36,535 bases of DNA, taken from the sequence record DRR723986_1300; one strand, given 5' to 3'. Shown here one piece after another: positions 1 through 23,212 of this stretch. Numbering within the stretch: position 1 is the first letter of the stretch; each line of letters starts with the position of its first letter. The notes under the pieces were generated by a model. That model did not search any database, was not told the origin of the DNA, and worked only from the letters and a program-made list of their open reading frames with translations. The position numbers were made by a program, and so were the translations under genes.

Positions 1-1
1 C

Positions 2-559
2 GGTGAGGGCACTGTATTGACTACCGACAGCTGTTTCCCCAATGCCAACCGCAACCCGGACTGGTCGCGAACAGCGATCGACGAGGAACTGGCCCGCACC
101 CTGGGTATCGAGAAAGTTATCTGGTTGCCGGGGGACCCGGAGGATCAGGAGACGGACGGCCATGTGGACGGCATCGCCTGCTTCGCGCGCCCGGGTACGG
201 TGATTATCGAATCCAGCGATGATCCGCAGGACCCTCGCCAGCCGTTTTTCAACTCGGTGCGCGATGTGCTGGCCCAGGCCACCGATGCCAGGGGGCGGCG
301 CCTGGAACTGCTGGAGCTGCCGGAAGCGCCGCCGGAGGTCATGCGCGGTGAGCGTTACTGCCCGTCCTACGTGAACTTCTACCTGGCCAACGGTGCGGTG
401 ATCGCACCGGCGTATCTGTGCGCGGAGGACGCGGTCGTGCGCGAGCGCCTGCAGTCGTTCTTTCCGGATCGGGAGATCGTGCTGGTCCCGATCGATGATA
501 TTGCCGAGGGTGGTGGGGGTATCCACTGCATCACCCAGCAGCAGCCGCTGGCGGTCTAG
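2..559 (+). CDS. aguA: Agmatine deiminase family protein (5'-truncated by window edge)
   Basis: Frame open from position 2 (GEGTVLTTDSCF..NRNP); motifs TDGHVD, SYVNFY and C-terminal GGGGIHCITQQQP with the catalytic Cys. Confidence 0.9.
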   Translation, partial: GEGTVLTTDSCFPNANRNPDWSRTAIDEELARTLGIEKVIWLPGDPEDQETDGHVDGIACFARPGTVIIESSDDPQDPRQPFFNSVRDVLAQATDARGRRLELLELPEAPPEVMRGERYCPSYVNFYLANGAVIAPAYLCAEDAVVRERLQSFFPDREIVLVPIDDIAEGGGGIHCITQQQPLAV

Positions 560-649
560 CGGACCTACCCCTCGCGGGGGGCGTGCCCTCTTGGCGTTCT
601 GTACTATAGTGGGGCCGATTCCAGTCAGGGCCCAGCGCGAGGGTAGTTT

Positions 650-2050
650 ATGTCCAGTTCATTTCCCGGTCCCAAAACCCGCCAAACCCTGGAGCGCGGC
701 ATTCCGCTGTTTCGCAATGGCCTGCGCTTCGAGCAGGAGATGGAGAAGGCCGGACGCCGCGGTTTTCGCAGTGCCAACCAGATCGTTGTCGATCGCGCCG
801 AGGGGGATTTCGTCTGGGATATGGACGGCCGGCGCTACATCGATTTCCAGAATGGCTGGGCGACCAACCCGCTGGGTAACGCCCACCCCGAGATTATCGA
901 TGCCGTCGATGCCGCTCACCGGCGCTACGGTTTTCACTACGATCACCCGCTGCGCTATGACCTGGCGGAAAAGCTCGCCGAGATCATGCCCGGCAAGGCA
1001 CTCCCGCGCTTTAACTATGAAGTCTCCGGTACCGAAGCGGCAGAAGCTGCGGTCCATCTGGCGCTGACCCACACCCGCCGACGCTACATCATCACCTTCG
1101 CCTCCGCCTATCACGGCAATGCGCTGGGATCCAAGGTGCTCAGCGGTCTGGACAGCGAGCGCTATCGCTATCTCGAGGCCTGGGGCGGGGGAGTGATCAA
1201 GGCGCCGTACCCGTACAGCGACATCCAGCCCGCAGGCATGAGCCAGGAGCAGTACGTCGAGTATTGCCTGTGGTACCTGGAAAACCATATTCCGAACGTC
1301 ATTGCCCCGCGGGACAACATCGCCGGCATCCTGGTGGAGCCTGGCCTTGCCGAGGGCGGTAACTGGATTCCCCCGGGTAACTTCCTGCGCGGCATCCGCG
1401 ATATCTGTGACCGCAACGACTGGCTGATGATCGGCGACGAGGTGCTTACCGGGCTGGGCCGCACTGGCAGGATGTGGGGTGTGGATCACTACGATGTGAT
1501 CCCCGATATCCTGGTGGTAGGCAAGAACCTGTCGGGGGGCATCGCGCCCTGCGCCGGGATCGCCGCCCGCGACGATATCCTCGGTGATGCGCCGGACTTC
1601 GAGTCCGGTTCGACCTTTGCCGGCACCCCGGCGGGCTGTGCCGCGGGTATCAAGACCCTGGAAATCTACGAGCGTGACGGGGTTGTTGCGCATGCCGAGC
1701 GACTGGGCAAGCTGGCGGCGGAGATCATGGCGGGCTGGGAGCGCGACTTCAGTATCGTGCGCCAGGTGCGTGGCAATGGCCTGCTGATGGGCGTGTCCTT
1801 CCAGAGCCCGGGGACGGAAGAGAAAAACTGGTGGTACAGCCGTGCCGTACGCAGCCACATGCTGGAGCGGGGGGTGTGGGCAATCAGCGACCGGGAACAC
1901 GCCATCCGCATGTACCCGGCACTCAACATGGATGAGGCGGTGCTGCTGGAGGGGCTGGAAATCATGCGCGAGGCCATCGCGCAGGTTGAGGAGCAGGGAC
2001 AGGAGTGCGGTGACAGCCCCGGCTGGCCCACCGGGGTCGCTGGTTTCTGA
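650..2050 (+). CDS. Class III PLP-dependent aminotransferase (GabT/ArgD-like)
   Basis: DMDGRRYIDF, SGTEAAEAA, YHG, LVEP, DEVLTGLGRTG and PDILVVGKNLSGG (PLP Lys) motifs; GAGGG SD at 639-643. Confidence 0.9.
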   Translation: MSSSFPGPKTRQTLERGIPLFRNGLRFEQEMEKAGRRGFRSANQIVVDRAEGDFVWDMDGRRYIDFQNGWATNPLGNAHPEIIDAVDAAHRRYGFHYDHPLRYDLAEKLAEIMPGKALPRFNYEVSGTEAAEAAVHLALTHTRRRYIITFASAYHGNALGSKVLSGLDSERYRYLEAWGGGVIKAPYPYSDIQPAGMSQEQYVEYCLWYLENHIPNVIAPRDNIAGILVEPGLAEGGNWIPPGNFLRGIRDICDRNDWLMIGDEVLTGLGRTGRMWGVDHYDVIPDILVVGKNLSGGIAPCAGIAARDDILGDAPDFESGSTFAGTPAGCAAGIKTLEIYERDGVVAHAERLGKLAAEIMAGWERDFSIVRQVRGNGLLMGVSFQSPGTEEKNWWYSRAVRSHMLERGVWAISDREHAIRMYPALNMDEAVLLEGLEIMREAIAQVEEQGQECGDSPGWPTGVAGF

Positions 2051-2172: not shown

Positions 2173-4569
2173 ATGAGTGAGCTCTACGCCCCGCCCGGAC
2201 TGTTCAAGCGCAGTAGCCTGGCCACGGCTATTTCGCTGGCCCTGTCTACGACCGCCTACGGCGAAGAGCGCCTGTTGCTGGAAGAGGTGATCGTCACCGC
2301 TACCAAGCGTGAGGTCAGCCTGCAGGAGGTACCCCAGGCGGTCACCGCCTTTACCACCGCCGATATCCAGCGCCAGGGCATGCTGGGCATGGATGACTAC
2401 GTGCTCAAGATCCCCAGCCTGTCCATGTCGCGGCGCGAGCCGGGTGGCACCTCCCTGTCGTTCCGCGGGGTCGCCGCCTCGGGCATTCAGTTCAACGCCA
2501 ACCCTTCTGCGGGTGTTTACCTCGACGAGCAGCCAATCACCTCGGCGGGTTTGAACCCTGACCCCCGCCTGATCGATATCGAGCGGGTCGAAGCGCTGAG
2601 CGGCCCCCAGGGCACCCTGTTCGGTGAAGCGTCCCAGTCAGGCACCCTGCGTATCATTACCAACAAGCCCGACACCGGCGAGTTTGAGGGCTGGGTGGAA
2701 GGCGGCGCGGCCTATGTCGAGGATAGCGACGACCCCGATTACGACGTCAGTGCGATGGTCAACATCCCGCTGGTCGAGAACAAGCTGGCCCTGCGCCTGG
2801 TGGGTTTCACCGGCGAGGAAGCGGGCTATGTGGATAACGTGCTGGGCACCAGCCAGGCGGACGCCTACGGCCGCCCCGGGGTGTTTACCAACGCCGCCCA
2901 GGTCGACGATGACGTCAACTCCTCGCAGAGCAGCGGCGGTCGAGCGGCCCTGCGCTGGGAGATCAATGACAACTGGCGAGTGGATGTCGGTGCGATTTTC
3001 CAGTCCTACGAACTCGACGGCTTCGGTGATACCAACCCCAACCGGGGTCTGGGTGAGCGCGAGCAGCTGCGCTTCAATGAAGAGAGCGCCAAGGATGACT
3101 GGTACCAGTTGAGCCTCACCCTTGAGGGCAGCATGGACTGGGCGGACACCATCCTGGTGGGTAGTTACTTCGAGCGCGATTTTGAGTACGTCGCCGATGT
3201 GACCGATTACCTGCACGACTTTGACCAGAAATATGACCCCGGTTATTACGCGATCTATGACTTTGGCGGGCATCCTAGCGGGCAGGCCTTTACCGAGCAA
3301 AACGACAAGCGCTGGACCCTGGAGGGTCGCCTGTCGACGCCGGCAGATTCCGACAGCCGCTGGCACGGCCTGGTGGGCTTCTACTACGGCAAGACCGAGC
3401 GCGAAACCAAGTTCACCTCGGTTGTGGAAGGCCTGGCAGACACCTATGCCTTCACCTACCTGAATTACTACGCGGCCTATTATTCACCGTCCCTGAACGG
3501 TTCGCCTCCGGGCACCTGGACGGGATCGACCAGCGATGGCTGGTACGGCTCGGTCTACGACCAGGAGATCGAACAGATCGCGGTGTTCGGTGAGGCCACC
3601 CTTGATATTACTGAGGACTTGTCGATTACCGCCGGCGGCCGCTGGTTTGAGATCGATCGCACCTTCGACTCACTGCAGACCGGGCTGGTGCAGGGGGAGT
3701 GGGCGAGTTTTGAGGATGACTACGTCACCATTTCCGACGTGGTGGACACCACCGAGGACGATTTCTCGCCCAAGGTCAATGTGACCTACCAGTTCACTGA
3801 TGACAACATGGTCTATGCCACGTATTCGGAGGGCTTCCGGGCTGGCGGTGGTAATGCGGTGCGGGCCTCCTCGGTGCTGCCGAGGCAGTACGATTCCGAT
3901 ACTGTGGAAAACTTCGAGATCGGCACCAAGAACACCTTGCTGGACGGCCGGCTCAACCTGAACGCCGTGGCCTATATGATGTCCTGGGACAATATCCAGA
4001 TTCAGGCCAATGACCCCAATATCTTCGCCCTGGGCTATGTGAATTTCCCCGAGGCGGAAATCACCGGCCTCGAGCTGGAGTTCTCGTGGGTGGTGACCCC
4101 GGGTCTGTTGGTGTCCGGGGGTTACGCTTACCTTGATGCTGCAATCTCGCAGGATTCGCGGATCATAGGTGATGACGGTTCGTTGGTGGCCGAGGTTAGC
4201 GACGGCACCCAGTTGCCGATCTCACCGGAGAACAAGGCCAACCTGGCCCTGGATTACAATTTCCAGAACAACCTGTGGGGCATGGAACCGCATATGCGCC
4301 TGGATTATGTGTTTGTCGGCGAGTCACTGAACTCGCTGGCCGGTACCGAGTCCATCGTATTCACCCGGGCACCCACCGAGCAGGATTCCTACAGCATCGT
4401 GAATTTCCGGGCTGGCCTGACCAGCGACAACTGGGATCTGACGGTGTACGCGGACAATCTTACCGACGAGGTGGCGGAGCAGTTCTACAACAACCGCTAC
4501 GGCTCGCTGCAGCGTTTGTCGATTAACAAACCGCGCACCATTGGCTTCAGCGCCCGGTACAAGTTCTGA
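2173..4569 (+). CDS. TonB-dependent outer membrane receptor
   Basis: Signal peptide, TonB-box region LEEVIVTATKR, plug motif DIERVEALSGPQGTLFG, YATYSEGFRAGG, terminal Phe (ARYKF); AGGAG SD at 2163-2167. Confidence 0.95.
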   Translation: MSELYAPPGLFKRSSLATAISLALSTTAYGEERLLLEEVIVTATKREVSLQEVPQAVTAFTTADIQRQGMLGMDDYVLKIPSLSMSRREPGGTSLSFRGVAASGIQFNANPSAGVYLDEQPITSAGLNPDPRLIDIERVEALSGPQGTLFGEASQSGTLRIITNKPDTGEFEGWVEGGAAYVEDSDDPDYDVSAMVNIPLVENKLALRLVGFTGEEAGYVDNVLGTSQADAYGRPGVFTNAAQVDDDVNSSQSSGGRAALRWEINDNWRVDVGAIFQSYELDGFGDTNPNRGLGEREQLRFNEESAKDDWYQLSLTLEGSMDWADTILVGSYFERDFEYVADVTDYLHDFDQKYDPGYYAIYDFGGHPSGQAFTEQNDKRWTLEGRLSTPADSDSRWHGLVGFYYGKTERETKFTSVVEGLADTYAFTYLNYYAAYYSPSLNGSPPGTWTGSTSDGWYGSVYDQEIEQIAVFGEATLDITEDLSITAGGRWFEIDRTFDSLQTGLVQGEWASFEDDYVTISDVVDTTEDDFSPKVNVTYQFTDDNMVYATYSEGFRAGGGNAVRASSVLPRQYDSDTVENFEIGTKNTLLDGRLNLNAVAYMMSWDNIQIQANDPNIFALGYVNFPEAEITGLELEFSWVVTPGLLVSGGYAYLDAAISQDSRIIGDDGSLVAEVSDGTQLPISPENKANLALDYNFQNNLWGMEPHMRLDYVFVGESLNSLAGTESIVFTRAPTEQDSYSIVNFRAGLTSDNWDLTVYADNLTDEVAEQFYNNRYGSLQRLSINKPRTIGFSARYKF

Positions 4570-4576
4570 CCAGTGG

Positions 4577-5170
4577 ATGGATATTGACGTCCCGCTGCGG
4601 GAGCTTGGCGCTTACGATATAGGGCCTCTGCAGGAAGCTATCCTGGGCCTCGGACCCGAGGCCTGGGCGGATCCATTCCGCCAACAGACCTACGATGTGC
4701 ACCACAATACCGAGTCGGTACTGATGGTGTTTACCGACGGCAGCGGCTGGCCCGATATCGAAATCCGCAAGGAGGCGGGCTGGGACCTGCTGGCGGACGC
4801 GGCCCTGCCGCTGATGCACCAGATCCTTGCCGACCACTACCCGCCGGGTGGAACCATTATCCGCGCAGTCGCGGCCAGGCTGGTGCCGGGTGGTGTGATC
4901 AAGCCGCATCGGGATACGCATCCCTCATTCCATTATGGGCATCGCATCCATATCCCGATTTCCACCAACTCCCGGGTGCGTTTCATCATCGACGGCCGGC
5001 CCTATCGCTTCGAGATCGGTAAGGTTTACGAGATCAACAACCAGTTGCAGCACAGTGTCAGCAACAAGGGCGGCGAAGCGCGGATCACCTTCATTTTCGA
5101 CTACATCCCGCCGCAGAAGCTGCAGGAAATGGCGGCGCTGCCGGGACGCGAGGCGAACCAGACCGCATGA
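4577..5170 (+). CDS. Aspartyl/asparaginyl beta-hydroxylase-domain protein (Fe/2OG cupin)
   Basis: IKPHRD (HxD), HRIHIP, EINNQLQHSVSN, RITFIFD. Start moved to ATG 4577, 7 nt after the TBDR stop. Confidence 0.8.
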   Translation: MDIDVPLRELGAYDIGPLQEAILGLGPEAWADPFRQQTYDVHHNTESVLMVFTDGSGWPDIEIRKEAGWDLLADAALPLMHQILADHYPPGGTIIRAVAARLVPGGVIKPHRDTHPSFHYGHRIHIPISTNSRVRFIIDGRPYRFEIGKVYEINNQLQHSVSNKGGEARITFIFDYIPPQKLQEMAALPGREANQTA

Positions 5171-6084
5171 CCAAGGTGGTCGCAACCTCGGTGGTGCGGG
5201 GCAGCCACCAGGGTGAATCCCATGGGGGTGTGCACCTGGTCGACTTTGAGGCGCAGACCTCGCTGCGGGTAATCGACTGGAATACCATGGATATTGACTG
5301 GCAGGGCCGTGGCTGGGACCGCGGCCTGCGCGGTATCGCCTTCGACGGTGAGCGGGTGTTCATCGCCGCCAGTGACGAGTTGTATGAGTACACACCGGAT
5401 TTTCGCCTGGTCGATTCCTGGCGCAACCCGTTCCTCAAGCATTGCCACGAGATTGCCGTCTACCAGCGGCGCCTGTACCTCACCTCGACCGGCTTCGACA
5501 GCATTCTAGGCTTTGATCTCGATCGCAACCGGTTTAGCTGGGGCATGCAGGTGGCCAGGGTGGGCGCACGCTTCCAGGGTGCGCCCTTCGACCCCGGTTC
5601 GGGCAAGGGTCCACCGCCCGGTAACGACCTGCACATCAACAACGTCTGCTGTACCGAGGACGGCCTTTACCTGAGCGGCTTGCGCACCGGCTGCCTGCTG
5701 CGCTTCAACGGGCGTGAGCTGGACAGTTGGGTGACCCTGCCACTGGGCATCCACAATGCGATGCCTTTCCGGAACGGGGTGATCTTCAACGATACCCAGG
5801 CCGATCTTGTGCGCTTCGAATCGCGCGTTGCCCATGCCGCGTTCAAGGTGCCGCAGTATGACCCGGGGCAACTCACCCACCTCGCGTTGGACGATTCGCG
5901 AATAGCCCGCCAGGGCTTCGGCCGCGGCCTGTGTGTCGTGGGGGAGGGCGTACTGGCCGCCGGCTCGTCGCCCTCAACCATCACCTTGCACGATATTGAT
6001 CGCGAGCGCTCACTGGCCAGCGTCGCGCTGACCATGGATGTCCGCAATGCGATCCACGGTCTGGAGCGCTGGCCTTTCGGCTGA
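5167..6084 (+). CDS. Uncharacterized beta-propeller protein (DUF4915/TIGR03032-like or arylsulfotransferase-like)
   Basis: ATGA overlap with the upstream gene; repeated blade-like motifs GLRGIAF, HCHEIAV, LHINNV, IHNA, FGRGL. Confidence 0.65.
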   Translation: MTKVVATSVVRGSHQGESHGGVHLVDFEAQTSLRVIDWNTMDIDWQGRGWDRGLRGIAFDGERVFIAASDELYEYTPDFRLVDSWRNPFLKHCHEIAVYQRRLYLTSTGFDSILGFDLDRNRFSWGMQVARVGARFQGAPFDPGSGKGPPPGNDLHINNVCCTEDGLYLSGLRTGCLLRFNGRELDSWVTLPLGIHNAMPFRNGVIFNDTQADLVRFESRVAHAAFKVPQYDPGQLTHLALDDSRIARQGFGRGLCVVGEGVLAAGSSPSTITLHDIDRERSLASVALTMDVRNAIHGLERWPFG

Positions 6085-6132
6085 TCCCCCCACTTACTAT
6101 ACTGCGGCCATTGTTTTGCCGGAGTAAGTGAC

Positions 6133-8043
6133 ATGGATGTATCCCGACCTGTTATTGGCCTGTTGGCCGTTCTCGCCCTCGCGCTGCCGCTGGCCGCAGT
6201 CGCCGCGCCGGAAGCGGGCAGCGCTGACAAGCCGCTTATCGAGAAGCGCGACGACCTGCCGCGCCATGAGTACCAATTGGACCTGCCGGTGGTGGCGCTG
6301 TACGAGCCGGCCAATCGGGCAGCCCTGCGGGCCCTGGCCAGCGCGGTGCAGCAGGATATCGAAGCTGACCTGGCCCGCTTCGATATCCGCGACGACAACA
6401 CGGTGCAGGAGTTCTACAGCCTGCTCGGCAGCGTCGCCCTGTTGGAGGAACGCTGGCAGGATTACCTCGACTACCTCGATAAACGTCGCGCCCTGGAAAC
6501 CAAGGAAGCCAACCGGCTGACCATGGGGCTGGTGGGAGAGGCCATCGCCCGGGTCAAGCTGGCGGGGGTGGAAGACGAGGCGACCGCGCTGGCGGCGGAG
6601 CTGACCCGGCTGGTACAAGCGCTGCCCTATACCACCGTGCAGAACAACCTGAAGAGCGCCAAGGGTAGCTCCGAGATTCTCACCCGGGCCCTGGTACTGG
6701 GCAACATCGAATCTTCCTTCCAGCCGGTGGTGGACAAAACCGATGGTCGGATCAGTTATGACATCGCCTCCTCGCTGGTCGGCGTCGCCTTCACCCTCGA
6801 TCTCTACATCCCCAATGCGGCCATCGTGAACCAGGTGTACGGTGACCATATTGCGGCGAATGATGTGGAGAAAGAAGACATCTGGGAGGCGCGCAAGTTT
6901 GCCCTCACCGATGACATCGATGCCCGGCCGGTGGTGATTTCGGTCTGGGACAGCGGCGTGGATACGCCGATTTTCGCGCCCACCGGGCAGCTGTGGACCA
7001 ACCCGGGAGAGATTCCGGACAACGGCATCGATGATGATGGCAACGGTTTTGTCGATGACGTGCACGGTTTTGCCTATAACCTCGATTCGGAGAAAGTGCC
7101 GGCCCTGCTGCGACCGATCGAAGAGCAGTTCGGGGTAGACCGCGCGGCCCTGCAGGTTCATGCCAAGGGCATCGGCGACATCTCTACCAATATCGATAGC
7201 CCCGAGGCGGCGGAACTACGCAAGTACATTGCCGGGTTGCCGCAGGCGTCGATCCAGGAATTTCTCGAATCACTGAACCTGTATTCCGGCTACGCCCACG
7301 GCACCCATGTGTCCGGCATTGCGCTGGAGAGCAATCCGTTTGCCCGCCTGCTGGTGGCGCGCATGACCTACAACCACACCCAGATTCCGCTGGAGCCGAC
7401 CATCGAGCAGGCAGAGCGGGATGCCGCCATGTTCCGCAGCGCCGGTGCCTACTTTCGGGCGCATGGCGTGCGTGCGGTCAATATGAGCTGGGGCGGCAGC
7501 CTGCGAGGCATCGAGGAAGCGCTGGAAGCCCACGATGCGGGGGGAACTCCCGAGGAGCGCAAGGCGCTGGCGCGGCGGATTTTCCTGATCGGTGACGAGG
7601 CCCTGCGCGAGGCGATTGCCGGCTCCCCCGATATCCTGTTCATCACCAGCGCCGGCAACTCGGACAATGACGTGAAGTTCGACGAGTTCTATCCCAGCAG
7701 CTACGAGTACCCCAACCTGCTGACGGTCGGTGCGGTCGACAGCGCGGGCGATGAGACCAGTTTCACCAGCCTGGGCAAGGTGGACATCTACGGTGATGGT
7801 TATGAAGTAGAGAGTTTCGTCCCCGGTGGTGACCGCATACGCTTCAGCGGCACCTCGATGTCTTCACCGCAGGTACTGAACCTGGCTTCCAAGTTGCTGG
7901 CCCTGGCGCCGGGACTCTCCGTAGCGGAGCTGCGTCAGCTGATTATCGACGGTGCGGATGACAAGGTGCTGGAATCACGCACCATCAAGCTGATGAACCC
8001 GAAGGCCTCGCTGGAGCTGCTGCGCGAGCGCAGCGGCGACTGA
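6133..8043 (+). CDS. Secreted S8 (subtilisin-family) serine peptidase
   Basis: Signal peptide; catalytic triad WDSGVD, HGTHVSG, SGTSMSSP; oxyanion SAGNS; NGIDDDGNGFVDD insertion. Confidence 0.93.
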   Translation: MDVSRPVIGLLAVLALALPLAAVAAPEAGSADKPLIEKRDDLPRHEYQLDLPVVALYEPANRAALRALASAVQQDIEADLARFDIRDDNTVQEFYSLLGSVALLEERWQDYLDYLDKRRALETKEANRLTMGLVGEAIARVKLAGVEDEATALAAELTRLVQALPYTTVQNNLKSAKGSSEILTRALVLGNIESSFQPVVDKTDGRISYDIASSLVGVAFTLDLYIPNAAIVNQVYGDHIAANDVEKEDIWEARKFALTDDIDARPVVISVWDSGVDTPIFAPTGQLWTNPGEIPDNGIDDDGNGFVDDVHGFAYNLDSEKVPALLRPIEEQFGVDRAALQVHAKGIGDISTNIDSPEAAELRKYIAGLPQASIQEFLESLNLYSGYAHGTHVSGIALESNPFARLLVARMTYNHTQIPLEPTIEQAERDAAMFRSAGAYFRAHGVRAVNMSWGGSLRGIEEALEAHDAGGTPEERKALARRIFLIGDEALREAIAGSPDILFITSAGNSDNDVKFDEFYPSSYEYPNLLTVGAVDSAGDETSFTSLGKVDIYGDGYEVESFVPGGDRIRFSGTSMSSPQVLNLASKLLALAPGLSVAELRQLIIDGADDKVLESRTIKLMNPKASLELLRERSGD

Positions 8044-15250: not shown

Positions 15251-16633
15251 ATGAAACCGGATTCAAGCCAGGAGCTGGCGGACTTTCTGCTCCGCCACCC
15301 CGAAACGACCATGCTGGAAGTGCTGATGGTCGATATGAACGGGATTCCTCGCTGCAAGCGTATCCCGCGCGGAGAGTTTGAAGCGCTGTTCCGCGGCGAG
15401 CTGAGCACCTGTGCGGCCACCCCACTGTGCAACACCCTGGGTACCATCATCGAGGACATCGGCCGCGGAACCGCGGACGGTGATCCCGATGGGCCATTGG
15501 TCGTGGTGCCGGGCACGCTGGCGCCGATACCCTGGCTGGCCTCGAACACCGCTCAGGTGCTGGCAAGCTTTCGCGAGGAAGACGGCAGTCCCAGCGCCAT
15601 CGACCCGCGCTGTATCCTGCAGAACGTGCTGGACCGTTTTGCCACTCTTGGCCTCAAGCCGGTGGTCGCCACGGAGCTTGAATTTTACCTGCTGGAGCCC
15701 GGCGAGGCAGACCGGCCCTCCCTGCGCCTGGGCCTGGTGCCGGGTACCGGCCTGCGTCAGGAAGGCGCCCAGTACGCCATGCCGGAAGACCTCTGGGACA
15801 ATGACGCGTTTCTCGAGGACATGCGCACCACTTCGGCACTGCAGGGCATCCCGATGACCACAGTGCTGTCGGAGTTTTCCCCCGGCCAGTTTGAAATCAA
15901 CCTGCACCACGTGGATGACCCGGTCCAGGCCTGCGACCACGCGGTGCTGCTCAAACGTGCGGTCAAGGGCACTGCCCGCCAGCACGGTCTCGGCTCTACC
16001 TTCATGGCCAAGCCGTTTCAGGATATCGCCGGCAGTGGCCTGCATATCCATATCAGCCTGTACGACCAGGACGGCAACAATATCTTCGCCGATCCCGCTG
16101 CCACCAGTGCCCCCGGCCTGACGGACCGGATGCGGCACGCGGTCGGTGGCCTGGCGGCAACCATGGGCGACGCCATGGCGATCTTCGCTCCCAATGCGAA
16201 CTCCTATCGCCGGCTGATCCCGGATAATTTTGCTCCCCTGACCCCTAACTGGGGCTACAACCACCGCTGCGTGTCGCTGCGCGTCCCGGTGTCCAGTCCG
16301 GAAAACCGCCGTATTGAACACCGCACGGCGGGTGCCGATGCCAATCCCTATCTGGTGATGGCGGCGGTACTGGCCGGTATCCAGTACGGCCTCGAACACC
16401 AGTGCGACCCGGGCCGCATGGTGCAAGAGGGCGAGGAAATCAAAGAAGGCCCGGCGACGCTGCCGCGCTACTGGCCGGACTCGCTGAACACCTTTGAAGC
16501 CAGCGACTTTTCCCGTGACCTGCTCGGTGCCGATTTTCATCGGCTGTTCACCACCATCCGGCGCCAGGAGTGCGAGGAGTTCGCGGCGACCATAGCCGAC
16601 CTCGATTACCGCTGGTACCTGCGGTCTGTTTAA
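15251..16633 (+). CDS. Glutamine synthetase-like gamma-glutamyl-amine ligase (PuuA/PauA-like)
   Basis: DMNG, TELEFYL, EFSPGQFEINL, TFMAKP, GSGLHIHISL, NSYRRL, RIEHRTAGADANPYL; amine-catabolic gene context. Confidence 0.85.
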   Translation: MKPDSSQELADFLLRHPETTMLEVLMVDMNGIPRCKRIPRGEFEALFRGELSTCAATPLCNTLGTIIEDIGRGTADGDPDGPLVVVPGTLAPIPWLASNTAQVLASFREEDGSPSAIDPRCILQNVLDRFATLGLKPVVATELEFYLLEPGEADRPSLRLGLVPGTGLRQEGAQYAMPEDLWDNDAFLEDMRTTSALQGIPMTTVLSEFSPGQFEINLHHVDDPVQACDHAVLLKRAVKGTARQHGLGSTFMAKPFQDIAGSGLHIHISLYDQDGNNIFADPAATSAPGLTDRMRHAVGGLAATMGDAMAIFAPNANSYRRLIPDNFAPLTPNWGYNHRCVSLRVPVSSPENRRIEHRTAGADANPYLVMAAVLAGIQYGLEHQCDPGRMVQEGEEIKEGPATLPRYWPDSLNTFEASDFSRDLLGADFHRLFTTIRRQECEEFAATIADLDYRWYLRSV

Positions 16634-16645
16634 AGAGAAACTGTC

Positions 16646-17908
16646 ATGACCACCACCATTGCCACTGACGTCGACGATTCCCCTGAGCGGATGAAGGCCA
16701 AGGCCAGCGCCCAGAAGCAGCGGCCCGGTTTTGCCATCGACCCCTATTTTTACCGCTCGCACGTCACCTTCGAAAAGGAACTGGACACCATCCTGTTCCG
16801 CAGCTGGCTGTATGCTGGCCACGTGAGCCAGATACCCGAGCCCGGTGATTTCCTGCAGTACGAGCTCGGCGAGGACGCGATCATCATCAGTCGCGACCTT
16901 GAGGGCGACGTGCAGGCCCAGTTCAACATCTGCCGTCATCGCGGCGCCCGGGTCTGTGAGCAGGCCCAGGGCAATACGCGGACCTTCGTCTGCCCGTATC
17001 ACGGCTGGGTCTATAACCTGGACGGCAGTCTGCGAGCGGCGCGGGAGATGGAAGTCCTGGAGGGTTTCGACCCGTCGGCCTACGGCTTGAAGAAGCCGCA
17101 GCTGGTGGTGTTCCATGGGCTGATTTTTGTTAACTGCGATCCGCAGGCGGCACCCTTCGAGCCGGACCTCGCCCTGATCGAACCGGCGCTGGCGGGTTAT
17201 GACCTGGCGCATGCGAAAGTGATCGACAGCCGCACCTACCGGGTAGGCGCCAACTGGAAGCTGGCCCTGGAAAACTACCTTGAGTGCTACCACTGCGCCA
17301 CCGCGCACCGAGCCTACGCCAAGATGCATACCCTCAAGGAACCCTATTGCCAGGTCGAGGGGATCAACGAGGCGATGCTGGCCCGGGCGGAGCAGCAGAC
17401 CGGGGTGTCGGGGCTTACCACCGATCTCTACCAGGTGTATGGCTATGCACCGCACCACGGAGGCGGCACCTACACCAGTCGCTATGCCCTGTACGACGGG
17501 TTCGTGACCGGCAGCGAGGATGGCCAGCCGGTGGCGCCGCTGATGGGTGACTACACGGGCTACGACGGCGGCGCCGGTGATTTCCAGTTCGGTCCGCTGA
17601 CCTTCATGCTCAATTACCCGGACCACTGCGTGCTGTACCGATTTACCCCGCGCGCGCTCAATCACACGGATATGGAGATCGTCTGGTACGTGCGCGGCGA
17701 TGCGGTGGAAGGGGTTGATTACGATGTGGACAAGATCACCTGGCTCTGGCATCGCACCACGCTCGAAGACGAGTTCATCATCACCCGCAACAGCGCGGGG
17801 GTGAATTCGCGCTTCTTTGAACCAGGCCCTTACCACCCGGAGCACGAGAAGAACAGCATCGACTTCGTGGACTGGTATCTCGACTGCCTGATCGATGAGG
17901 ATCTATGA
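16646..17908 (+). CDS. Rieske non-heme iron oxygenase alpha subunit (GbcA/Stc2/choline monooxygenase-like)
   Basis: CRHRG...CPYHGW Rieske ligands; NWKLALENYLECYHCATAH mononuclear Fe site. Confidence 0.9.
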   Translation: MTTTIATDVDDSPERMKAKASAQKQRPGFAIDPYFYRSHVTFEKELDTILFRSWLYAGHVSQIPEPGDFLQYELGEDAIIISRDLEGDVQAQFNICRHRGARVCEQAQGNTRTFVCPYHGWVYNLDGSLRAAREMEVLEGFDPSAYGLKKPQLVVFHGLIFVNCDPQAAPFEPDLALIEPALAGYDLAHAKVIDSRTYRVGANWKLALENYLECYHCATAHRAYAKMHTLKEPYCQVEGINEAMLARAEQQTGVSGLTTDLYQVYGYAPHHGGGTYTSRYALYDGFVTGSEDGQPVAPLMGDYTGYDGGAGDFQFGPLTFMLNYPDHCVLYRFTPRALNHTDMEIVWYVRGDAVEGVDYDVDKITWLWHRTTLEDEFIITRNSAGVNSRFFEPGPYHPEHEKNSIDFVDWYLDCLIDEDL

Positions 17909-19194
17909 CGCATCCCGCTGATGTGCAGCCGCATACCGGTTCCTATTATGCGGCAACGCTAAACGACGACACCCGCTACCCACCGCTGGCGGGAGAGACG
18001 CGCGCGGACGTCTGCGTTATCGGCGGTGGATTTTCCGGGGTTGCAACCGCACTGACGCTGGCCGAGCGCGGGTACTCGGTGGTTCTGCTGGAGCAGCACC
18101 GGATTGGCTGGGGTGCCTCCGGGCGCAACGGCGGCCAGCTCATTGGCGGGGTGTCAGGCGCTGACAAACTGGTAGCCGAACACGGACCGGCCGTAGCCGA
18201 CATGGTCTGGGATATAGGCTATCGCGGCCATGCCATCATCGAGCAGCGTATTGAACAGTATGCGATCGACTGCGACTTCAAACACGGTTATATCGACGTC
18301 GCGATCAAACCCCGGCATATGCGCGATTTTGAGGCGCACTTCGAAGAACTGCAGCGACGCGGCTTCGGCGCCGACGCCCGACTGGTGCCGCGCGAGGAAA
18401 TCGGGAGTGTGCTGGGCACGCAGGCCTACATTGGTGGCCTGATCAATAATCGCAACGGCCACTTGCACCCGCTCAACCTCTGCGCCGGCGAAGCCCGCGC
18501 AGCAGCGAGTCTCGGCGCCCGCCTGCACGAGGGCAGCCCGGTCACCGGGATTGTTCACGGCAGCAAGCCGGTGGTACAAACCGCTACCGGGCAGGTAGTC
18601 GCCGAGTCCGTGGTACTGACCGGCAACGCTTACAATCGGCTCGAGCGCCAGCGCCTGCCGGGCCAGGTGTTTCCCGCCGGCAGTTTCATCATCGCCACCG
18701 AACCGCTGAGCGAGGCGGAAGCAGCGCAGATCAACCCGCTGGACCTCGCCGTCTGCGACCCGAACTTCGTGCTCGATTATTTCCGGCTCAGTGCCGACCG
18801 GCGCATGCTGTTCGGCGGCCGCTGCAACTATTCCGGCCGCGAGCCCCGCAGCATCAAGGCCGACATCCTGCCGCGCATGCTGAAACTCTACCCCGGCCTT
18901 CGCGGCAAGCAGATCGACTACGAGTGGGGTGGCAACATCGGCATCGTGGTTAACCGGGTGCCACTGTTCGGGCGCATCGCCCCCAACGTCTTTCACGCCA
19001 CCGGCTATTCCGGGCACGGCGTCAATGTGACCCATGCCGCCGGCGAGATCATGGCCGACGCGATCGCGGGCACCATGGAGCGGCTCGATATTTTTGAGCG
19101 CATCAGCCACAGCAAAATTCCCTTCGGCCAGACCTTCGGCAACCAGATCTTGGCCCTTGGCATGTTGTATTACCGGCTCAGGGATCTTCTCTGA
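17905..19194 (+). CDS. FAD-dependent amine oxidoreductase (PuuB/DadA-like)
   Basis: SYYAAT, DVCVIGGGFSG, GASGRNGGQ, HLHPLNL, DYFRLSADRRMLFGG, GYSGHGV; ATGA overlap. Confidence 0.88.
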   Translation: MTHPADVQPHTGSYYAATLNDDTRYPPLAGETRADVCVIGGGFSGVATALTLAERGYSVVLLEQHRIGWGASGRNGGQLIGGVSGADKLVAEHGPAVADMVWDIGYRGHAIIEQRIEQYAIDCDFKHGYIDVAIKPRHMRDFEAHFEELQRRGFGADARLVPREEIGSVLGTQAYIGGLINNRNGHLHPLNLCAGEARAAASLGARLHEGSPVTGIVHGSKPVVQTATGQVVAESVVLTGNAYNRLERQRLPGQVFPAGSFIIATEPLSEAEAAQINPLDLAVCDPNFVLDYFRLSADRRMLFGGRCNYSGREPRSIKADILPRMLKLYPGLRGKQIDYEWGGNIGIVVNRVPLFGRIAPNVFHATGYSGHGVNVTHAAGEIMADAIAGTMERLDIFERISHSKIPFGQTFGNQILALGMLYYRLRDLL

Positions 19195-19259
19195 GTTCGG
19201 CTCTAATCCCATCGTGTCGGGGGCGGCAATTCCTTGCCCCAGGCCGCAGGAGACAGGTG

Positions 19260-20456
19260 ATGACACAGGCAACGCAGAACCAGGACAGTCGCGATTACCA
19301 CGTGCTCGATCGGGCGGAGCCCGCGCTGCCCAGCGCCTGGTATTACGATCCTGAGCATTACCGGCGCGAGCTGGCAGCGGTCTGGAACCGGCACTGGGTG
19401 TACGGCTGTCACAGCAGCGCGCTGACCGAGGTCGGCAGTTACCAGACCCTGTCGATTGGCGACCAGAATGTCTGGGTTGTGCGCACCGAGGGCGGCGGGG
19501 TCGCTGGCTATCACAACACCTGCCGTCACCGCGGCTCGATCCTGTTGACCGAGCCGCAGGGCAAGCTGGCGACGGGCTCGGTGTCCTGCCCCTACCACCG
19601 CTGGCGCTATGACATCGGTGATGGCAGCCTCATCGCCATCTCCTCCTATGACGAACCGGCGGGTTTCGAGCGCTGCGAGCACAGCCTGTTCCCGGTTGCC
19701 GTACACCAGTGGCGCGGCCTGATTTTCGTCAACATCGATCCGGCAGCGCAGTGGGATGCGGACGCGGTGTTTGACCCGCTCTGGCAGGACATCAATGCCC
19801 TGCCGATCGAAGACTGGGTCCTGGGTCGCCAGTGGAGCAAGACCCTGGCCTGTAACTGGAAAACCTTCTGGGATAACTACGGGGAGTGCCTGCATTGCCC
19901 CGGCGTGCACCGTGACCTGTCGCGGCTGGTGCCCATTTTCAAGCGCGGTCTGCTCGGTCCGCAGGACCTGCCGGACTGGCAGCAGCATGTCGACAACCCC
20001 GATCCATCGTTTCGCGGCGGACTGCGTGAGGGGGCGGAAACCTTCTCCATGGATGGCAGCGCCCAGGGCTATGCCAATACCGAGGGTCTGTCGGAGGCTG
20101 CTCGGCGACGCGGCGTGACCTATGCGACGGCGTTTCCCTCGGTGTACATCGGCGCGCACGCGGATCATGCGCGGATCGTGCACATCCGCCCGCTGGGACC
20201 CGAGCTGACCGAGATGTCGGTGGACTGGTTGTTCCAGCCGGCGGCGCTGGCGGACCCGGATTACGACATCGACAACGTCACCGACTTTATCAAGCAGGTG
20301 CTGGAAGAGGACGGCCAGGTCTGCGAGCTCAACCAGCGCGGCCTGCATGCGGCGCCGATGGAGCGCGGCGTGCTGATGCCTGAAGAATATGAACTGAAAG
20401 GCTTCAGGGACTGGCTATTGGCCACCCTGCAACAAGCCGACAACACAACGGATTAA
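19260..20456 (+). CDS. Second Rieske oxygenase alpha subunit (quaternary/methylated-amine oxygenase group)
   Basis: CRHRG...CPYHRW; NWKTFWDNYGECLHCPGVH; ED..VCELNQRGL; AGGAG SD at 19248-19252 (start ATG 19260 or GTG 19257). Confidence 0.9.
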   Translation: MTQATQNQDSRDYHVLDRAEPALPSAWYYDPEHYRRELAAVWNRHWVYGCHSSALTEVGSYQTLSIGDQNVWVVRTEGGGVAGYHNTCRHRGSILLTEPQGKLATGSVSCPYHRWRYDIGDGSLIAISSYDEPAGFERCEHSLFPVAVHQWRGLIFVNIDPAAQWDADAVFDPLWQDINALPIEDWVLGRQWSKTLACNWKTFWDNYGECLHCPGVHRDLSRLVPIFKRGLLGPQDLPDWQQHVDNPDPSFRGGLREGAETFSMDGSAQGYANTEGLSEAARRRGVTYATAFPSVYIGAHADHARIVHIRPLGPELTEMSVDWLFQPAALADPDYDIDNVTDFIKQVLEEDGQVCELNQRGLHAAPMERGVLMPEEYELKGFRDWLLATLQQADNTTD

Positions 20457-20461
20457 TAGCT

Positions 20462-21838
20462 ATGACGATTCTCAAACTGGATACGGAAGCCATCAAGCGC
20501 AAGGACCAGGCGCACTTTCTCCACCCCTGGCAGGAATTCGACAGCTTCGAGGAAGACGGCGCGCTGGTCATTGCCCGCGCCCAGGGTGCTCATGTTTATG
20601 ACAGTGACGGCAAGCGCTACCTCGACGGTATCGGCGGCATGTGGTGTGTCAATGTCGGCTACGGCCGCAAGGAAATCGCAGCGGTCATGGCGGAGCAGGC
20701 GGAACGGCTGCCTTACTACTCGACCTTCACCGACACGACCAATGTGCCGGCGGTGCAACTCGCCACCAAGCTGGCGTCCCTGGCACCGGGCTCGATCAAC
20801 CACGTGATGTATTCCTGCAGCGGGTCGGCGGCGGTCGATTCCGCAATCCGCCTGGTGCACTACTATTTCGGCCGTCGCGGACAGCCGGAGAAGAAGCACA
20901 TCATTGCGCGCAACTCCGGCTACCATGGCAGCACCTACCTCGGGATTTCCCTGACCTCCCGGCCCAGTGGTTACACGGACTACTTCCACTACATCAACGA
21001 CTTCATTCACCATATCCGCGCCCCGAACCCCTACCGGCGCCCGGATGGGATGTCGCTGGAGGCGTTTACCGATTCGCTGCTGGCGGAGTTCGAGGACAAG
21101 GTCGCCGCCATCGGCGCGGACAAGGTTGCCGCATTTATCGCTGAACCGATCCAGGGCTCCGGCGGGGTGATCGTGCCGCCGCCGGGTTACCTGCAGCGCA
21201 TTCGCAAGCGCTGCAGTGAGCTGGACATCCTGTTCATTGCCGACGAAGTGGTTACCGCCTTTGGCCGGGTGGGGCATATGTTCGCCTCCGTGGATGAGTT
21301 TGGCATCCAGCCCGACATCATCACCGTGGCCAAGGGCCTGACCTCGGGGTATATCCCGCTGGGGGCGACCCTGTTCTCGGAAGAGATATTCGATGTCATT
21401 AGCGCTACCGGTGAGGAGGCCTGCTTCGAGCACGGCTTTACCTACTCAGGACACCCGGTTGCCTGCGCGGTGGCGCTGAAGAATATCGAGATCATCGAGC
21501 GCGAGCAGATCTGCGAACATGTGCGTGAGACCGGCGAGTATTTCGAGCAGCAGCTCAAGACCCTGCTGGACCTGCCCCACGTGGGCGATGTGCGCGGTCG
21601 GCGCTTCATGATGTGCGTGGAATACGTGGCCGACAAGGAGACCCGGGAACTGCTGCCGGATGAGTTCAACGTGTCCAAGCGTATTGCCGATGCCTGCGAG
21701 GCCCACGGGGTGTTGGTGCGGCCGATAGGCCATCTCAATATCCTCTCGCCCCCGCTGACCCTGACCCGCGAGGAAATCGATACCCTGGTGCGAGTTTTAC
21801 GGGAAAGCGTACTTGAGGTGGAGTCGCTGCTAAACTGA
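20462..21838 (+). CDS. Class III omega-amine aminotransferase (SpuC/BioA-like)
   Basis: HFLHP, YLDGIGGMWCVNVGYGR, YHGST, EPIQGSGGV, DEVVTAFGR, AKGLTSGYIPLG, HGFTYSGHP. Confidence 0.92.
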   Translation: MTILKLDTEAIKRKDQAHFLHPWQEFDSFEEDGALVIARAQGAHVYDSDGKRYLDGIGGMWCVNVGYGRKEIAAVMAEQAERLPYYSTFTDTTNVPAVQLATKLASLAPGSINHVMYSCSGSAAVDSAIRLVHYYFGRRGQPEKKHIIARNSGYHGSTYLGISLTSRPSGYTDYFHYINDFIHHIRAPNPYRRPDGMSLEAFTDSLLAEFEDKVAAIGADKVAAFIAEPIQGSGGVIVPPPGYLQRIRKRCSELDILFIADEVVTAFGRVGHMFASVDEFGIQPDIITVAKGLTSGYIPLGATLFSEEIFDVISATGEEACFEHGFTYSGHPVACAVALKNIEIIEREQICEHVRETGEYFEQQLKTLLDLPHVGDVRGRRFMMCVEYVADKETRELLPDEFNVSKRIADACEAHGVLVRPIGHLNILSPPLTLTREEIDTLVRVLRESVLEVESLLN

Positions 21839-21940
21839 CGCTTACTCCCGCTGCCGGGGCGGGCCGGTTAGCACCGGCCGGCTGTCGGTGAGCGATCCTA
21901 TTTCACTGCAAACAGGGGAACCGCGGTGACCGAAGGAACC

Positions 21941-23212
21941 ATGTCGCTCCACCATGAAAAGACCGTCTTCGACGGTTGGCGCTCCCTGTCCCTGTCTCTG
22001 TATATGACCCTGATCGGCTACGGCCTGCTGGTTGGCATCCCGGTTATCAGCACGGCCTGGGTGACGCTGCTGGGTTTCTCCGAAGTGGAAGTGGGTCGGG
22101 TGGCTGGCGCTGACCTTGGGGGCCTGTCATTGGGAGCCGTGGTGACCGCACTGCTGATTGCGCGGGTAAACCGGCGCCTGCTGGTGTTGGCATCGGTTGT
22201 CATCGCCGTCGGGGCCAATGCCCTGTGTATGGTGATGGTGGATTACGAGCAGGTGCTCTGGCTGCGCCTGCTGGCGGGTTTTGGCAGCGGTATCTATACC
22301 GCGGTGGCGGTGGCGACGCTTGGCGCCAGCAGTAAGCCCGCCCGCGCCTACAATATGATGTTGTTTGCCTTCGCTTTCTCCCAGGCCCTGGAGCTGCACT
22401 TCCTCCCGCAGTTGACGATGAATGGCATCTACCTGGTGTTTATCTGCTGCTACCTCGTCAGCCTGCCGTTTCTGGCCTGGCTGCCGCCGCGTCCGGTAGA
22501 AAAAGCGCTGGACGTCGAACTGGATGTGGAGGAGCAGGGCGGCGCACATCATATTGAGCACGTGCATATTCCCGCCCATGTGCCCTGGCTCTGCCTGGGC
22601 GCAATTACGTTCACCTATATCAACATCGGCGCTTACTGGACCTATATCGAGCTGGCGAGCGCGGGTTCTCCAGCCGATCCTGACTGGGTGGGCTCGGTAC
22701 TGGTCTGGGCGTCCTTTATGAGCCTCGTCGGTTGCCTCGTGGCCACGATCATCAGCAACCGCTGGGGCCTGGCCCGACCGCTGCTGGTGACCCTGGTCGC
22801 GCATGCAAGTGTGGTGGGCATGCTGGCGCTGGGCATTACCAATACCAGCATTTTTATCAGCGTATTTATGTTCAATTTCCTGTGGATCTTTATCGACGTG
22901 TACCAGATGTCGACCATTGCCACCGTGGATCATTCCGGCCGCTTTGCTTCGCTGATGCCGGCGGCTCAGGGCTTGGGCCAGATTATCGGCCCGAACGTCG
23001 CTGCGGGTATCCTCGCAGCCGGGCTGGGCTATAACGCCGTGTTTATCATGTGCGCGCTGGCATCGCTCACCGGGATGCTGATCTACTTCTGGATGTACAT
23101 CCGCCTCAGCCGGGCGATACCCGACCTGGCCCATGCCTCTGCCGCCGCGCACGGGGCGGCGGCAATTTCAGGCGGTACCCCGGTGCTGGACCGCCCGGTC
23201 GAAGTATCCTGA
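21941..23212 (+). CDS. Major facilitator superfamily transporter
   Basis: About 12 hydrophobic segments, LRLLAGFGSG motif; start ATG 21941 (AAGGA SD) or GTG 21926. Confidence 0.85.
   Translation: MSLHHEKTVFDGWRSLSLSLYMTLIGYGLLVGIPVISTAWVTLLGFSEVEVGRVAGADLGGLSLGAVVTALLIARVNRRLLVLASVVIAVGANALCMVMVDYEQVLWLRLLAGFGSGIYTAVAVATLGASSKPARAYNMMLFAFAFSQALELHFLPQLTMNGIYLVFICCYLVSLPFLAWLPPRPVEKALDVELDVEEQGGAHHIEHVHIPAHVPWLCLGAITFTYINIGAYWTYIELASAGSPADPDWVGSVLVWASFMSLVGCLVATIISNRWGLARPLLVTLVAHASVVGMLALGITNTSIFISVFMFNFLWIFIDVYQMSTIATVDHSGRFASLMPAAQGLGQIIGPNVAAGILAAGLGYNAVFIMCALASLTGMLIYFWMYIRLSRAIPDLAHASAAAHGAAAISGGTPVLDRPVEVS

Follow-up and report, generated by a model that had tools for sequence, protein, structure and literature searches.

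The stretch of DNA analyzed here (DRR723986_1300, 36,535 nt, referred to below as the window) carries in its first 23,212 nt a gene for a TonB-dependent outer membrane receptor and, in the same block, genes that most likely serve the breakdown of an amine. We studied this block (positions 1 to 23212) by listing open reading frames (ORFs) in all six frames and then scanning the 31 ORFs of the window with Pfam and NCBIfam. An initial annotation, made from the sequence alone, had described the block as a receptor-anchored utilization locus for an N-methylated polyamine or amine. It had listed uptake proteins, a secreted protease, a guanidino deiminase, candidate demethylating enzymes, a glutamylation route, and two aminotransferases, and all of these classes were found within positions 1 to 23212. 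The block also holds four genes absent from that list (g04, g05, g07, and g08). Two compact, operon-like units stand out. One is g03 to g06 (2173-8043), with intergenic gaps of -4 to 48 nt, and the other consists of nine genes, g09 to g17 (10775-23212), with gaps of -94 to 87 nt and several overlapping stop and start codons. Between the units, g07 and g08 lie on the opposite strand, with g08 divergent from the nine-gene operon. Promoter and terminator scans gave counts no higher than the shuffle mean and were uninformative.

The block begins with g01 (2-559, plus strand), an agmatine deiminase-like gene (PAD_porph) that is cut at the window edge and encodes the C-terminal 185 residues. This fragment scored 215.6 bits against PF04371 and, with those C-terminal 185 residues only, 175.5 bits over positions 157 to 356 of the AguA model TIGR03380 (cut-off, 381.8). 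It is followed by g02 (650-2050, plus strand), which encodes a class III aminotransferase of the GABA-AT/acetylornithine-AT type (PF00202, 270 bits). The receptor gene, g03 (2173-4569, plus strand), encodes Plug and β-barrel domains (PF07715 and PF00593), and the N terminus of its product was judged by eye to be signal-like and TonB-box-like. An operator-like palindrome, AATGAATGAGCATTCATT (2115-2132), lies 41 nt 5' of the receptor start codon. Three more plus-strand genes complete this unit: g04 (4541-5170), for an AspH-like 2-oxoglutarate/Fe(II) dioxygenase (cupin; PF05118, 46.7 bits) that shows HRD...H and probably starts at M13 (position 4577); g05 (5167-6084), for an orphan 305-residue protein; and g06 (6133-8043), for a secreted S8 serine peptidase with a signal peptide (PF00082). 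On the minus strand, g07 (8047-10053) encodes a protein with tetratricopeptide repeats (TPR) and a Sulfotransfer_3 domain, and g08 (10062-10709) encodes a TetR-family repressor. The repressor combines TetR_N with the BetI-type C-terminal domain TetR_C_6 (PF00440 and PF13977), but it scores below the cut-offs of the BetI models TIGR03384 (101 bits; cut-off, 201.3) and NF001978 (100.5 bits; cut-off, 118) and is not a BetI by either. A second operator-like palindrome, AATGAATGAGTATTCATT (10770-10787), lies in the divergent region between this gene and the operon.

The nine-gene operon is on the plus strand. It starts with genes for two CrtI/PYROXD2-like FAD flavoproteins of the CrtI/COG1233 type, A (g09, 10775-12469; true start probably M26 or M27, near position 10850) and B (g10, 12432-14024). 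The third gene, g11 (13931-15208), encodes a stand-alone GcvT-fold tetrahydrofolate (THF)-binding protein (GCV_T and GCV_T_C) that probably starts at M31 (position 14021), where its start codon and the g10 stop codon overlap as ATGA. We refer to g09, g10, and g11 as the trio. Next come g12 (15251-16633), for a glutamine synthetase-like, PuuA-like γ-glutamyl ligase (Gln-synt_C, 305 bits); g13 (16646-17908), for Rieske monooxygenase 1 (PF00355 and PF00848); and g14 (17905-19194), for a DAO-family FAD oxidase resembling PuuB and pipecolate oxidase (PF01266, 245 bits), which has no relative in the PDB at an E value of ≤1e-15. The operon ends with g15 (19257-20456), for Rieske monooxygenase 2 (PF00355 and PF00848); g16 (20462-21838), for an omega-aminotransferase of the PRK07036 type (NF005447, 718.7 bits; cut-off, 618); and g17 (21926-23212), for an inner membrane transporter belonging to the major facilitator superfamily (MFS; PF07690).

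Both Rieske proteins fall into the Stc2/GbcA/CntA group. The CxH...CxxH motif is intact in each (starting at residue 96 of g13 and residue 89 of g15), and the catalytic domain is present. Their nearest solved relatives are 3n0q, Stc2 (3vca), and 4qup, and residues 24 to 413 of g13 align end to end with residues 14 to 398 of Stc2 (220 bits). However, they are not GbcA proteins by the GbcA model (NF058607; cut-off, 670 bits), which was the best NCBIfam match of both but scored 262.4 bits for g13 and 157.5 bits for g15. Orthologs of the cluster Rieske protein in five genomes scored 272 to 294 bits against the same model. Of the trio proteins, g09 and g10 both retain the GxGxxG dinucleotide-binding motif. 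In related loci, g10 always follows g09, and g09 orthologs are unusually well kept, with 76 to 86% identity across families. The best NCBIfam match of g11 was trimethylamine N-oxide (TMAO) demethylase, Tdm (NF053776, 272.5 bits over profile positions 376 to 760 of 763), and its best PDB match was residues 407 to 757 of 9q5a (186 bits). These matches cover the THF domain only, and g11 is not a Tdm, a family whose model has a cut-off of 1,100 bits and requires an N-terminal catalytic domain. It is not a T-protein either. Although it has GCV_T and GCV_T_C, it scores 159.6 bits against TIGR00528 (cut-off, 235.85), which indicates a shared fold rather than membership. The THF domain of Tdm is reported to receive channelled formaldehyde and to form methylene-THF (PMC13619132, in excerpt).

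A search of species-representative genomes with Rieske 1 yielded 80 related loci, mostly from marine Cellvibrionales-type Gammaproteobacteria (Halieaceae, Porticoccaceae/SAR92, and Luminiphilus). Locus counts come from tblastn with all window proteins, and many of the loci remaining outside a count end at contig edges. (L and G numbers below are our labels for related loci and sampled genomes.) A complete trio was beside the Rieske homolog in 51 of the 80 loci and at least one trio gene in 58, and the GcvT-like gene was translationally coupled to the flavoprotein genes in every locus. The TetR gene was present in 29 loci, always divergent from the flavoprotein genes, and an AspH-like gene (orthologs with 63 to 70% identity) was directly beside it in 12. 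The glutamine synthetase-like ligase gene was found in 24 loci, immediately upstream of the Rieske gene, and g16-type aminotransferase genes were found in 23. Orthologs of g02 (59 to 64% identity) lie close to the core in 16 loci, and also in genome G090. The DAO oxidase gene was in 16 loci as well, and its orthologs (60 to 63% identity) adjoin PurU in SAR92-type loci. MFS transporter orthologs (47 to 73% identity) were in 11 loci, every one trio bearing. Homologs of g15 with at least 30% identity occurred in just two loci, and g15 is an accessory gene of this lineage.

Genes that are not in the window also recur in these loci. They include agmatinase (above the NCBIfam cut-off), PotF-type binding proteins with ATP-binding cassette (ABC) transporter subunits, a class I amidotransferase/PuuD-like hydrolase, aldehyde dehydrogenases, and a fusion of TetR with GNAT. 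Coenzyme A (CoA)-type enzymes (an ADP-forming CoA ligase, an acyl-CoA dehydrogenase, and an enoyl-CoA hydratase) are encoded in related operons, and PurU is in seven related loci. Two properties that the initial annotation had ascribed to the substrate are thereby strengthened. That it is methylated agrees with the Stc2/GbcA grouping of both Rieske proteins, the closeness of g11 to the THF domain of TMAO demethylase, and PurU. That it is polyamine-like agrees with the PotF/G/H/I-type importers, agmatinase, and PuuC- and PuuD-like genes of related loci.

The gene order TetR/flavoprotein A-flavoprotein B-GcvT was also found on alphaproteobacterial plasmids (42 records, 7 of them at 60 to 80% identity). 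Those inspected, from Shinella, Parasedimentitalea, Fuscovulum, and Rhizobium, encode a Rieske protein, a class III aminotransferase, and a polyamine-type ABC importer in four of four cases. On the Fuscovulum plasmid (L096), the trio, a pair of Rieske genes, and the aminotransferase and importer genes form one operon. All of the plasmid module genes carry generic annotations only. The same Fuscovulum operon is closed by genes annotated as encoding a "dimethylsulfoniopropionate lyase family protein" (cupin) and an amidohydrolase (22647-25098). Carriers available in culture include Luminiphilus sp. nBUS_07 (L066), Parahalioglobus pacificus KCTC 23430 (L052), Halieaceae bacterium WSDMB12 (L029), Dasania phycosphaerae GY-19 (L009), Shinella zoogloeoides ATCC 19623 (L081), and Fuscovulum ytuae YMD61 (L096). 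Two to four paralogous trios occur in single genomes (G017, G090, G093, and G106; L008, L021, L055, and L094), in identity classes of about 77 to 88%, 61 to 69%, and 48 to 51%. This suggests an enzyme family with different amine substrates. The core is a widely conserved module without a name. The literature searched yielded no characterized equivalent, either for the trio or for an amine locus linked to a receptor, in agreement with the earlier remark that this combination fits no pathway that could be named. The homarine operon was considered as an equivalent and set aside as unrelated, the excerpted text of PMC13236597 mentioning no Rieske, GcvT, or glutamine synthetase-like enzyme.

The receptor, g05, and the S8 protease seemed unlinked to the core in a first synteny table because the 10-kb flanks of the 80-locus set were too short to reach the receptor. 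Therefore, five genomes were searched and longer stretches were taken. In all five, a cassette consisting of the receptor, the AspH-like dioxygenase, g05, and the TPR-sulfotransferase is directly beside the TetR/trio cluster. The best receptor match of each genome adjoins the demethylase cluster (35 to 49% identity, and 58% in G090), the g05 ortholog is single copy (54 to 62% identity) and always by the receptor, and the g07 ortholog in the cassette has 43 to 56% identity in these genomes (43 to 62% with further regions included). We extended this to 201 genomes sampled evenly from the same order, of which 18 have g05 and 20 have a g09-type gene. The two co-occur strongly (15 genomes with both, 3 and 5 with one, and 178 with neither; Fisher P = 7e-16, not corrected for phylogeny). 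They were within 15 kb on the same contig in 11 of the 18 g05 carriers, against a random-pair expectation of about 0.0075. The cassette is a unit in its own right. In nine informative extra regions, the receptor, g05, and the TPR-sulfotransferase were together in all nine, and the AspH-like gene was with them in six (L098, L099, L102, L103, L106, and L107). The arrangement closest to the window is that of G090, which has the trio (on the opposite strand), TetR, a PotF/G/H/I-like importer, a g02-type aminotransferase, agmatinase, an unknown gene, a PuuC-like aldehyde dehydrogenase, and then the cassette. In L048, the receptor gene is downstream of the operon on the same strand.

The hallmark of the cassette is g05. 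It matches no Pfam family even at an E value of ≤1, and its family is very large, with at least 5,928 homologous clusters. None of the clusters listed has a Pfam domain, and the few with names are called "hypothetical." An AF2 model of g05 is a six-bladed β-propeller (pLDDT, 90.4). Certain His, Cys, and Glu residues are invariant across the family, and no signal peptide was seen by eye. Structure searches with the model returned generic propellers, with the longest alignments to arylsulfate sulfotransferases (3elq, Z 20.8 over 270 residues; 9kf6 [Cpz4], Z 19.2 over 262 residues). In terms of Z-score, the resemblance of the model to them is not separable from that to nonenzymatic YWTD propellers (Z 21 to 23). 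The g07-type TPR-sulfotransferase of the cassette has two to eight copies per genome, and the other copies adjoin receptor paralogs (G001 to G005). Such pairs of TPR-sulfotransferase and receptor paralog are found at several unrelated sites per genome (for example, G004:C1:4132237-4136730).

The two palindromes provide a second link between receptor and operon. AATGAATGAGTATTCATT is in the region that separates the TetR gene from g09, and the same 18-mer with one central base changed (AATGAATGAGCATTCATT) is 5' of the receptor gene. No further site occurs in the 36.5 kb, even when three mismatches are allowed, and 100 shuffles gave an expectation of 0.00. With up to one mismatch, the core ATGAAT-N4-ATTCAT is in the TetR gap of 27 related loci and has 34 matches in total in 1.56 Mb. 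Because it is kept in so many TetR gaps and is rare overall, the palindrome is very likely the TetR operator. Its presence 5' of both units predicts that one repressor controls the receptor operon as well as the nine-gene operon in this lineage. G090 (one mismatch) and G172 (two mismatches) also have a second site, located where the AspH-like gene and the receptor gene diverge. On Rhizobiaceae plasmids (L081, position 11926; L097, position 11924), a related palindrome, CTGAAT-N4-ATTCAG, is in the TetR/flavoprotein gap, and therefore the operator seems to be conserved between Alpha- and Gammaproteobacteria. The idea that the block acts as one unit thus has two lines of support, which are the synteny of the cassette (5 of 5 genomes and 11 of 18 carriers) and the two-site palindrome of the window, seen again in G090 and in weaker form in G172. 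Such a grouping goes far beyond what chance would produce.

These observations are best read as a TetR-controlled regulon of a marine Halieaceae-like gammaproteobacterium for the uptake and catabolism of an N-methylated, polyamine-like amine. We hold this reading with slightly better than even confidence, and uptake with folate-linked N-demethylation of a methylated, polyamine-like amine is the most likely function of the locus. The receptor would bring the compound across the outer membrane, and the MFS carrier would bring it across the inner membrane, a step that a PotFGHI-type ABC system would perform in relatives. The Rieske oxygenases would hydroxylate the N-methyl or N-alpha carbon and so remove methyl groups beyond the reach of a flavoprotein, such as those on a quaternary nitrogen. 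The flavoprotein pair (g09 and g10) would then oxidize the remaining N-methyl amine, and g11 would trap the formaldehyde equivalent as methylene-THF. The primary amine set free could be γ-glutamylated by g12 and oxidized by the DAO protein g14, or it could be transaminated by g02 and g16. Agmatine deiminase may supply this putrescine-type route with agmatine. The TetR protein presumably has the substrate or an early intermediate as its effector. A more specific version has the receptor cassette take up N-methylated polyamines that are large or scarce, for example the long-chain polyamines with N-methyl-propyleneimine units found in diatom silica, to be dismantled by Stc2-type Rieske enzymes and a previously undescribed three-protein, folate-linked demethylase. 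We regard this version as a long shot. Methyl-lysines, also put forward in the initial annotation, would be another speculative candidate substrate. What is new here is the physical and predicted regulatory link between receptor and operon, the conserved operator, and the placement of the protease outside the system.

Several observations weigh against the regulon reading, and some of them lead to alternatives. To begin with, two genes that the initial annotation had counted in are not conserved parts of the locus. The S8 protease had no match in the five genomes when searched with the window protein and was in 0 of the 80 related loci. Its homologs were found at 28 metagenomic loci (41 to 70% identity), where no other gene of this locus was present except for one weak aminotransferase match. 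The S8 gene is an insertion into the receptor operon specific to the window's organism, in which it may still be coexpressed with that operon. The agmatine deiminase was also in 0 of the 80 loci, and an agmatinase takes its place in SAR92-type loci and G090. That nonhomologous enzymes preserve the agmatine step speaks well for agmatine/putrescine metabolism being a genuine part of the neighborhood. The synteny comparison proposed at the outset thus gave a divided answer, in that the trio with its Rieske gene and the cassette recur together but the protease and the deiminase do not recur with them. A further difficulty concerns the reductase of the Rieske enzymes. No ferredoxin reductase domain was found among the 31 window ORFs, nor was a reductase partner (the counterpart of GbcB, CntB, or Stc3/4) seen among the recurrent neighbor clusters of related loci; it may be encoded elsewhere in the genome. 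Overall, the gene content described at first is confirmed, and its interpretation is partly supported.

The points that concern the cassette could mean that two independent modules are neighbors here. The cassette would be a generic receptor-linked modification system that hydroxylates and sulfates a peptide, a metabolite, or the receptor itself, unrelated to amine catabolism, and the operon would be fed via porins and the MFS carrier. Indeed, no trio was within about 10 kb of the cassette in seven of the nine informative extra regions, and free-standing cassettes are present in G107, G060, G017 (two copies), G113, and G029, with one further copy in G093. The multicopy TPR-sulfotransferases beside other receptor paralogs argue that this protein is a generic partner of a receptor class and not a pathway enzyme. 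No second operator site was found near the receptor in five more distant genomes (L091 to L095) with two mismatches allowed. In its alphaproteobacterial versions, the operon comes with ABC importers and without a receptor. In addition, neighborhoods of a TonB-dependent receptor, a dioxygenase, and a sulfotransferase have been read as modification systems for secondary metabolites or peptides (Iyer et al. 2010, PMC2938197, in excerpt). However, two unrelated modules would not be expected to share an operator in front of both units, with matching sites in G090 and G172, or to be adjacent as often as they are in the sampled carriers and the five genomes. The AspH-like genes that directly adjoin TetR in 12 loci and the same-strand receptor gene after the operon in L048 also speak for a connection. 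We therefore think it unlikely that the cassette and the operon are unrelated. The receptor does belong to the locus, but because the cassette also stands free in several genomes, "anchored" is too strong a word.

A second alternative concerns the substrate. The locus might be a composite of known routes without a new substrate. A divergent oxygenase of the GbcA/Stc2 type, together with the flavoproteins and the GcvT-fold protein, would demethylate a common betaine (such as glycine betaine, proline betaine, or another osmolyte of this kind) beside an agmatine/putrescine pathway made up of the glutamine synthetase-like ligase, the DAO oxidase, the aminotransferases, and agmatine deiminase. The BetI-type ligand domain of the TetR protein would suit a betaine, and so would GbcA as the best NCBIfam match of both Rieske proteins. 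PurU linkage is seen in sox/gbc clusters, to which the PurU-bearing loci here can be likened. The agmatinase or deiminase and the PotFGHI-, PuuC-, and PuuD-like genes could be explained by agmatine/putrescine use. The Rieske 1 ortholog was the best GbcA-like gene in five of five genomes, none reaching the cut-off, which leaves room for a plain betaine substrate; a canonical soxB gene, which was counted against the regulon reading, was found elsewhere in two of the five. Both figures come from GbcA and soxB family searches of unverified sensitivity, the control having been detected in 0 of the 14 named genomes. The same soxB genes also argue against the composite, and they are not alone in this. 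Rieske 1, at 262 bits, is far from the GbcA cut-off, and the importers linked to the trio are of the polyamine type (PotF/PotG) and not OpuA or BCCT betaine systems. An omega-aminotransferase is almost always in the operon, and end products such as glycine or proline would not need one. The glutamine synthetase-like and CoA ligase genes lie between the GcvT and Rieske genes within one operon, and two to four paralogous trios per genome point to a family of substrates. We judge such a composite improbable.

The last of the alternatives is that the flavoproteins are not N-demethylases at all. They might instead cleave internal C-N bonds of unmethylated polyamines (such as spermidine or norspermidine) in the manner of polyamine oxidases, or desaturate an acyl/CoA intermediate, with the GcvT-fold protein serving in something other than one-carbon transfer. 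A point against the regulon reading is that the solved relatives of g09 and g10 are carotenoid desaturases only, and weak ones (CrtI 4dgk, 71 bits), so that the pair looks closer to these than to known amine oxidases. The alternative is favored by weak Amino_oxidase matches in Pfam (E values of 4e-15 and 1e-20). The CoA-type enzymes (ligase, dehydrogenase, and hydratase) encoded in related operons would fit it as well, and the GNAT domain fused to a second TetR in SAR92-type loci is reminiscent of acetyl-polyamine oxidase routes. Nevertheless, this alternative is very unlikely, being hard to square with a GcvT-fold protein whose translation is coupled to that of the flavoproteins at every locus, that is closest to a domain making methylene-THF from formaldehyde (PMC13619132, in excerpt), and that is accompanied by PurU and N-demethylating Rieske enzymes.

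The regulon as we read it shares steps with several known systems and differs from each. In the GbcAB-DgcAB-SoxBDAG systems of Pseudomonas and Chromohalobacter and with the stachydrine demethylase Stc2 of Sinorhizobium, a Rieske enzyme of the same group performs the first N-demethylation, and a flavoprotein step tied to THF, a BetI-type TetR regulator, and linked PurU are further shared features. However, the window Rieske proteins are far under the GbcA cut-off and have no reductase gene in the window. Furthermore, the later steps of DgcAB and Sox would here be taken by the CrtI/PYROXD2-like pair and a free GcvT-fold protein. The transporters are polyamine-type, MFS, or TonB-dependent, and aminotransferases and a glutamine synthetase-like ligase are part of the operon. 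With the Puu pathway of Escherichia coli and the Pau/Spu pathway of Pseudomonas, the window has in common the glutamine synthetase-like ligase, the DAO oxidase, and omega-aminotransferases, and related loci add PuuC- and PuuD-like genes, PotFGHI-like importers, and agmatinase. Even so, by the γ-glutamylputrescine synthetase model g12 is not a PuuA (213.1 bits against NF045547; cut-off, 650), and of the full Puu set (PuuA to PuuD) the window has PuuA-like and PuuB-like genes only. PuuC-like and PuuD-like genes were found in related loci only, and the demethylating enzymes have no counterpart in Puu or Pau.

The GcvT-fold protein g11 aligns with the THF-binding domain of Tdm (9q5a), dimethylglycine oxidase (1pj5), dimethylglycine dehydrogenase, and the sarcosine oxidase alpha subunit. 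Unlike in those enzymes, the folate domain is a separate protein here, and its presumed partners are the CrtI-like flavoproteins, whereas Tdm has a Zn domain and the others have a DAO-family flavin domain. The receptor side resembles the TonB-dependent polysaccharide utilization loci (PULs), the carbohydrate utilization (CUT) loci, and the neighborhoods described by Iyer et al. (PMC2938197, in excerpt), in that a receptor is encoded, and here apparently coregulated, with processing enzymes; with the last of these, it shares the pairing of the receptor with a dioxygenase and a sulfotransferase. The window differs from PUL and CUT loci in having no SusD-like partner and no glycoside hydrolase, and the linked catabolic genes are amine directed. 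None of the 31 window ORFs matched the SusD family, and the locus is not a Bacteroidota-type PUL. From both PUL/CUT loci and the excerpted neighborhoods of PMC2938197, the cassette differs in including an orphan β-propeller family outside Pfam.

Human PYROXD2 is an orphan mitochondrial flavoprotein for which we know of no GcvT partner. Its likeness to g09 comes from automatic Atlas cluster names only, the clusters nearest to g09 being called "phytoene desaturase family" or "PYROXD2." The function of PYROXD2 is stated as unknown (PMC8777681, in excerpt). Its locus outranks all other genetic determinants of N6-methyl-, dimethyl-, and trimethyl-lysine and N-methylpipecolate in plasma, accounts for about half of the variance of plasma N6-methyl-lysine, and is also associated with N-acetyl-isoputreanine (PMC8109053, in excerpt). 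It had been linked earlier to urinary trimethylamine and plasma dimethylamine (PMC8109053 and PMC8777681, both in excerpt). If our reading of the window is right, then the demethylase trio would be a new enzyme architecture with flavoproteins apparently related to human PYROXD2, an orphan protein with strong metabolite associations. In the more specific version with large or scarce polyamines, it would also offer a testable reaction for that protein.

Methylated amines and polyamines make up a large share of marine dissolved organic nitrogen, and the usual cargo of TonB-dependent receptors is siderophores, vitamins, and glycans. If the regulon reading holds, then abundant coastal Gammaproteobacteria (Halieaceae/OM60 and SAR92 relatives) own a dedicated, regulated route for a nitrogen compound outside the known pathways. 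TonB-dependent receptors would then also serve amine uptake, and in the more specific version this would be the first receptor-dependent amine utilization locus. The conserved TetR protein and its palindrome provide a practical handle, because the compound to which the repressor responds should be either the substrate itself or one formed early in its breakdown.

The rest of the window holds some further genes. A small c-type cytochrome gene (23564-23998) is 351 nt 3' of the MFS gene and outside the operon. The region from 24033 to 31683 encodes an 853-residue DUF7507/DUF11 protein (minus strand), a PepSY_TM-like protein of 245 residues, and a DUF1214 protein. It also contains a third CrtI/PYROXD2-like flavoprotein gene of the window (26688-28349, minus strand) and the gene of a second protein with Sulfotransfer_3, which lacks TPR (29160-30395, minus strand). 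Finally, positions 32191 to 36535 carry a heavy metal resistance-nodulation-division efflux operon of the CusC/CusB/CusA type (OEP, and HlyD_D23 with a heavy metal-binding domain), in which the AcrB-family pump gene is cut by the window end.

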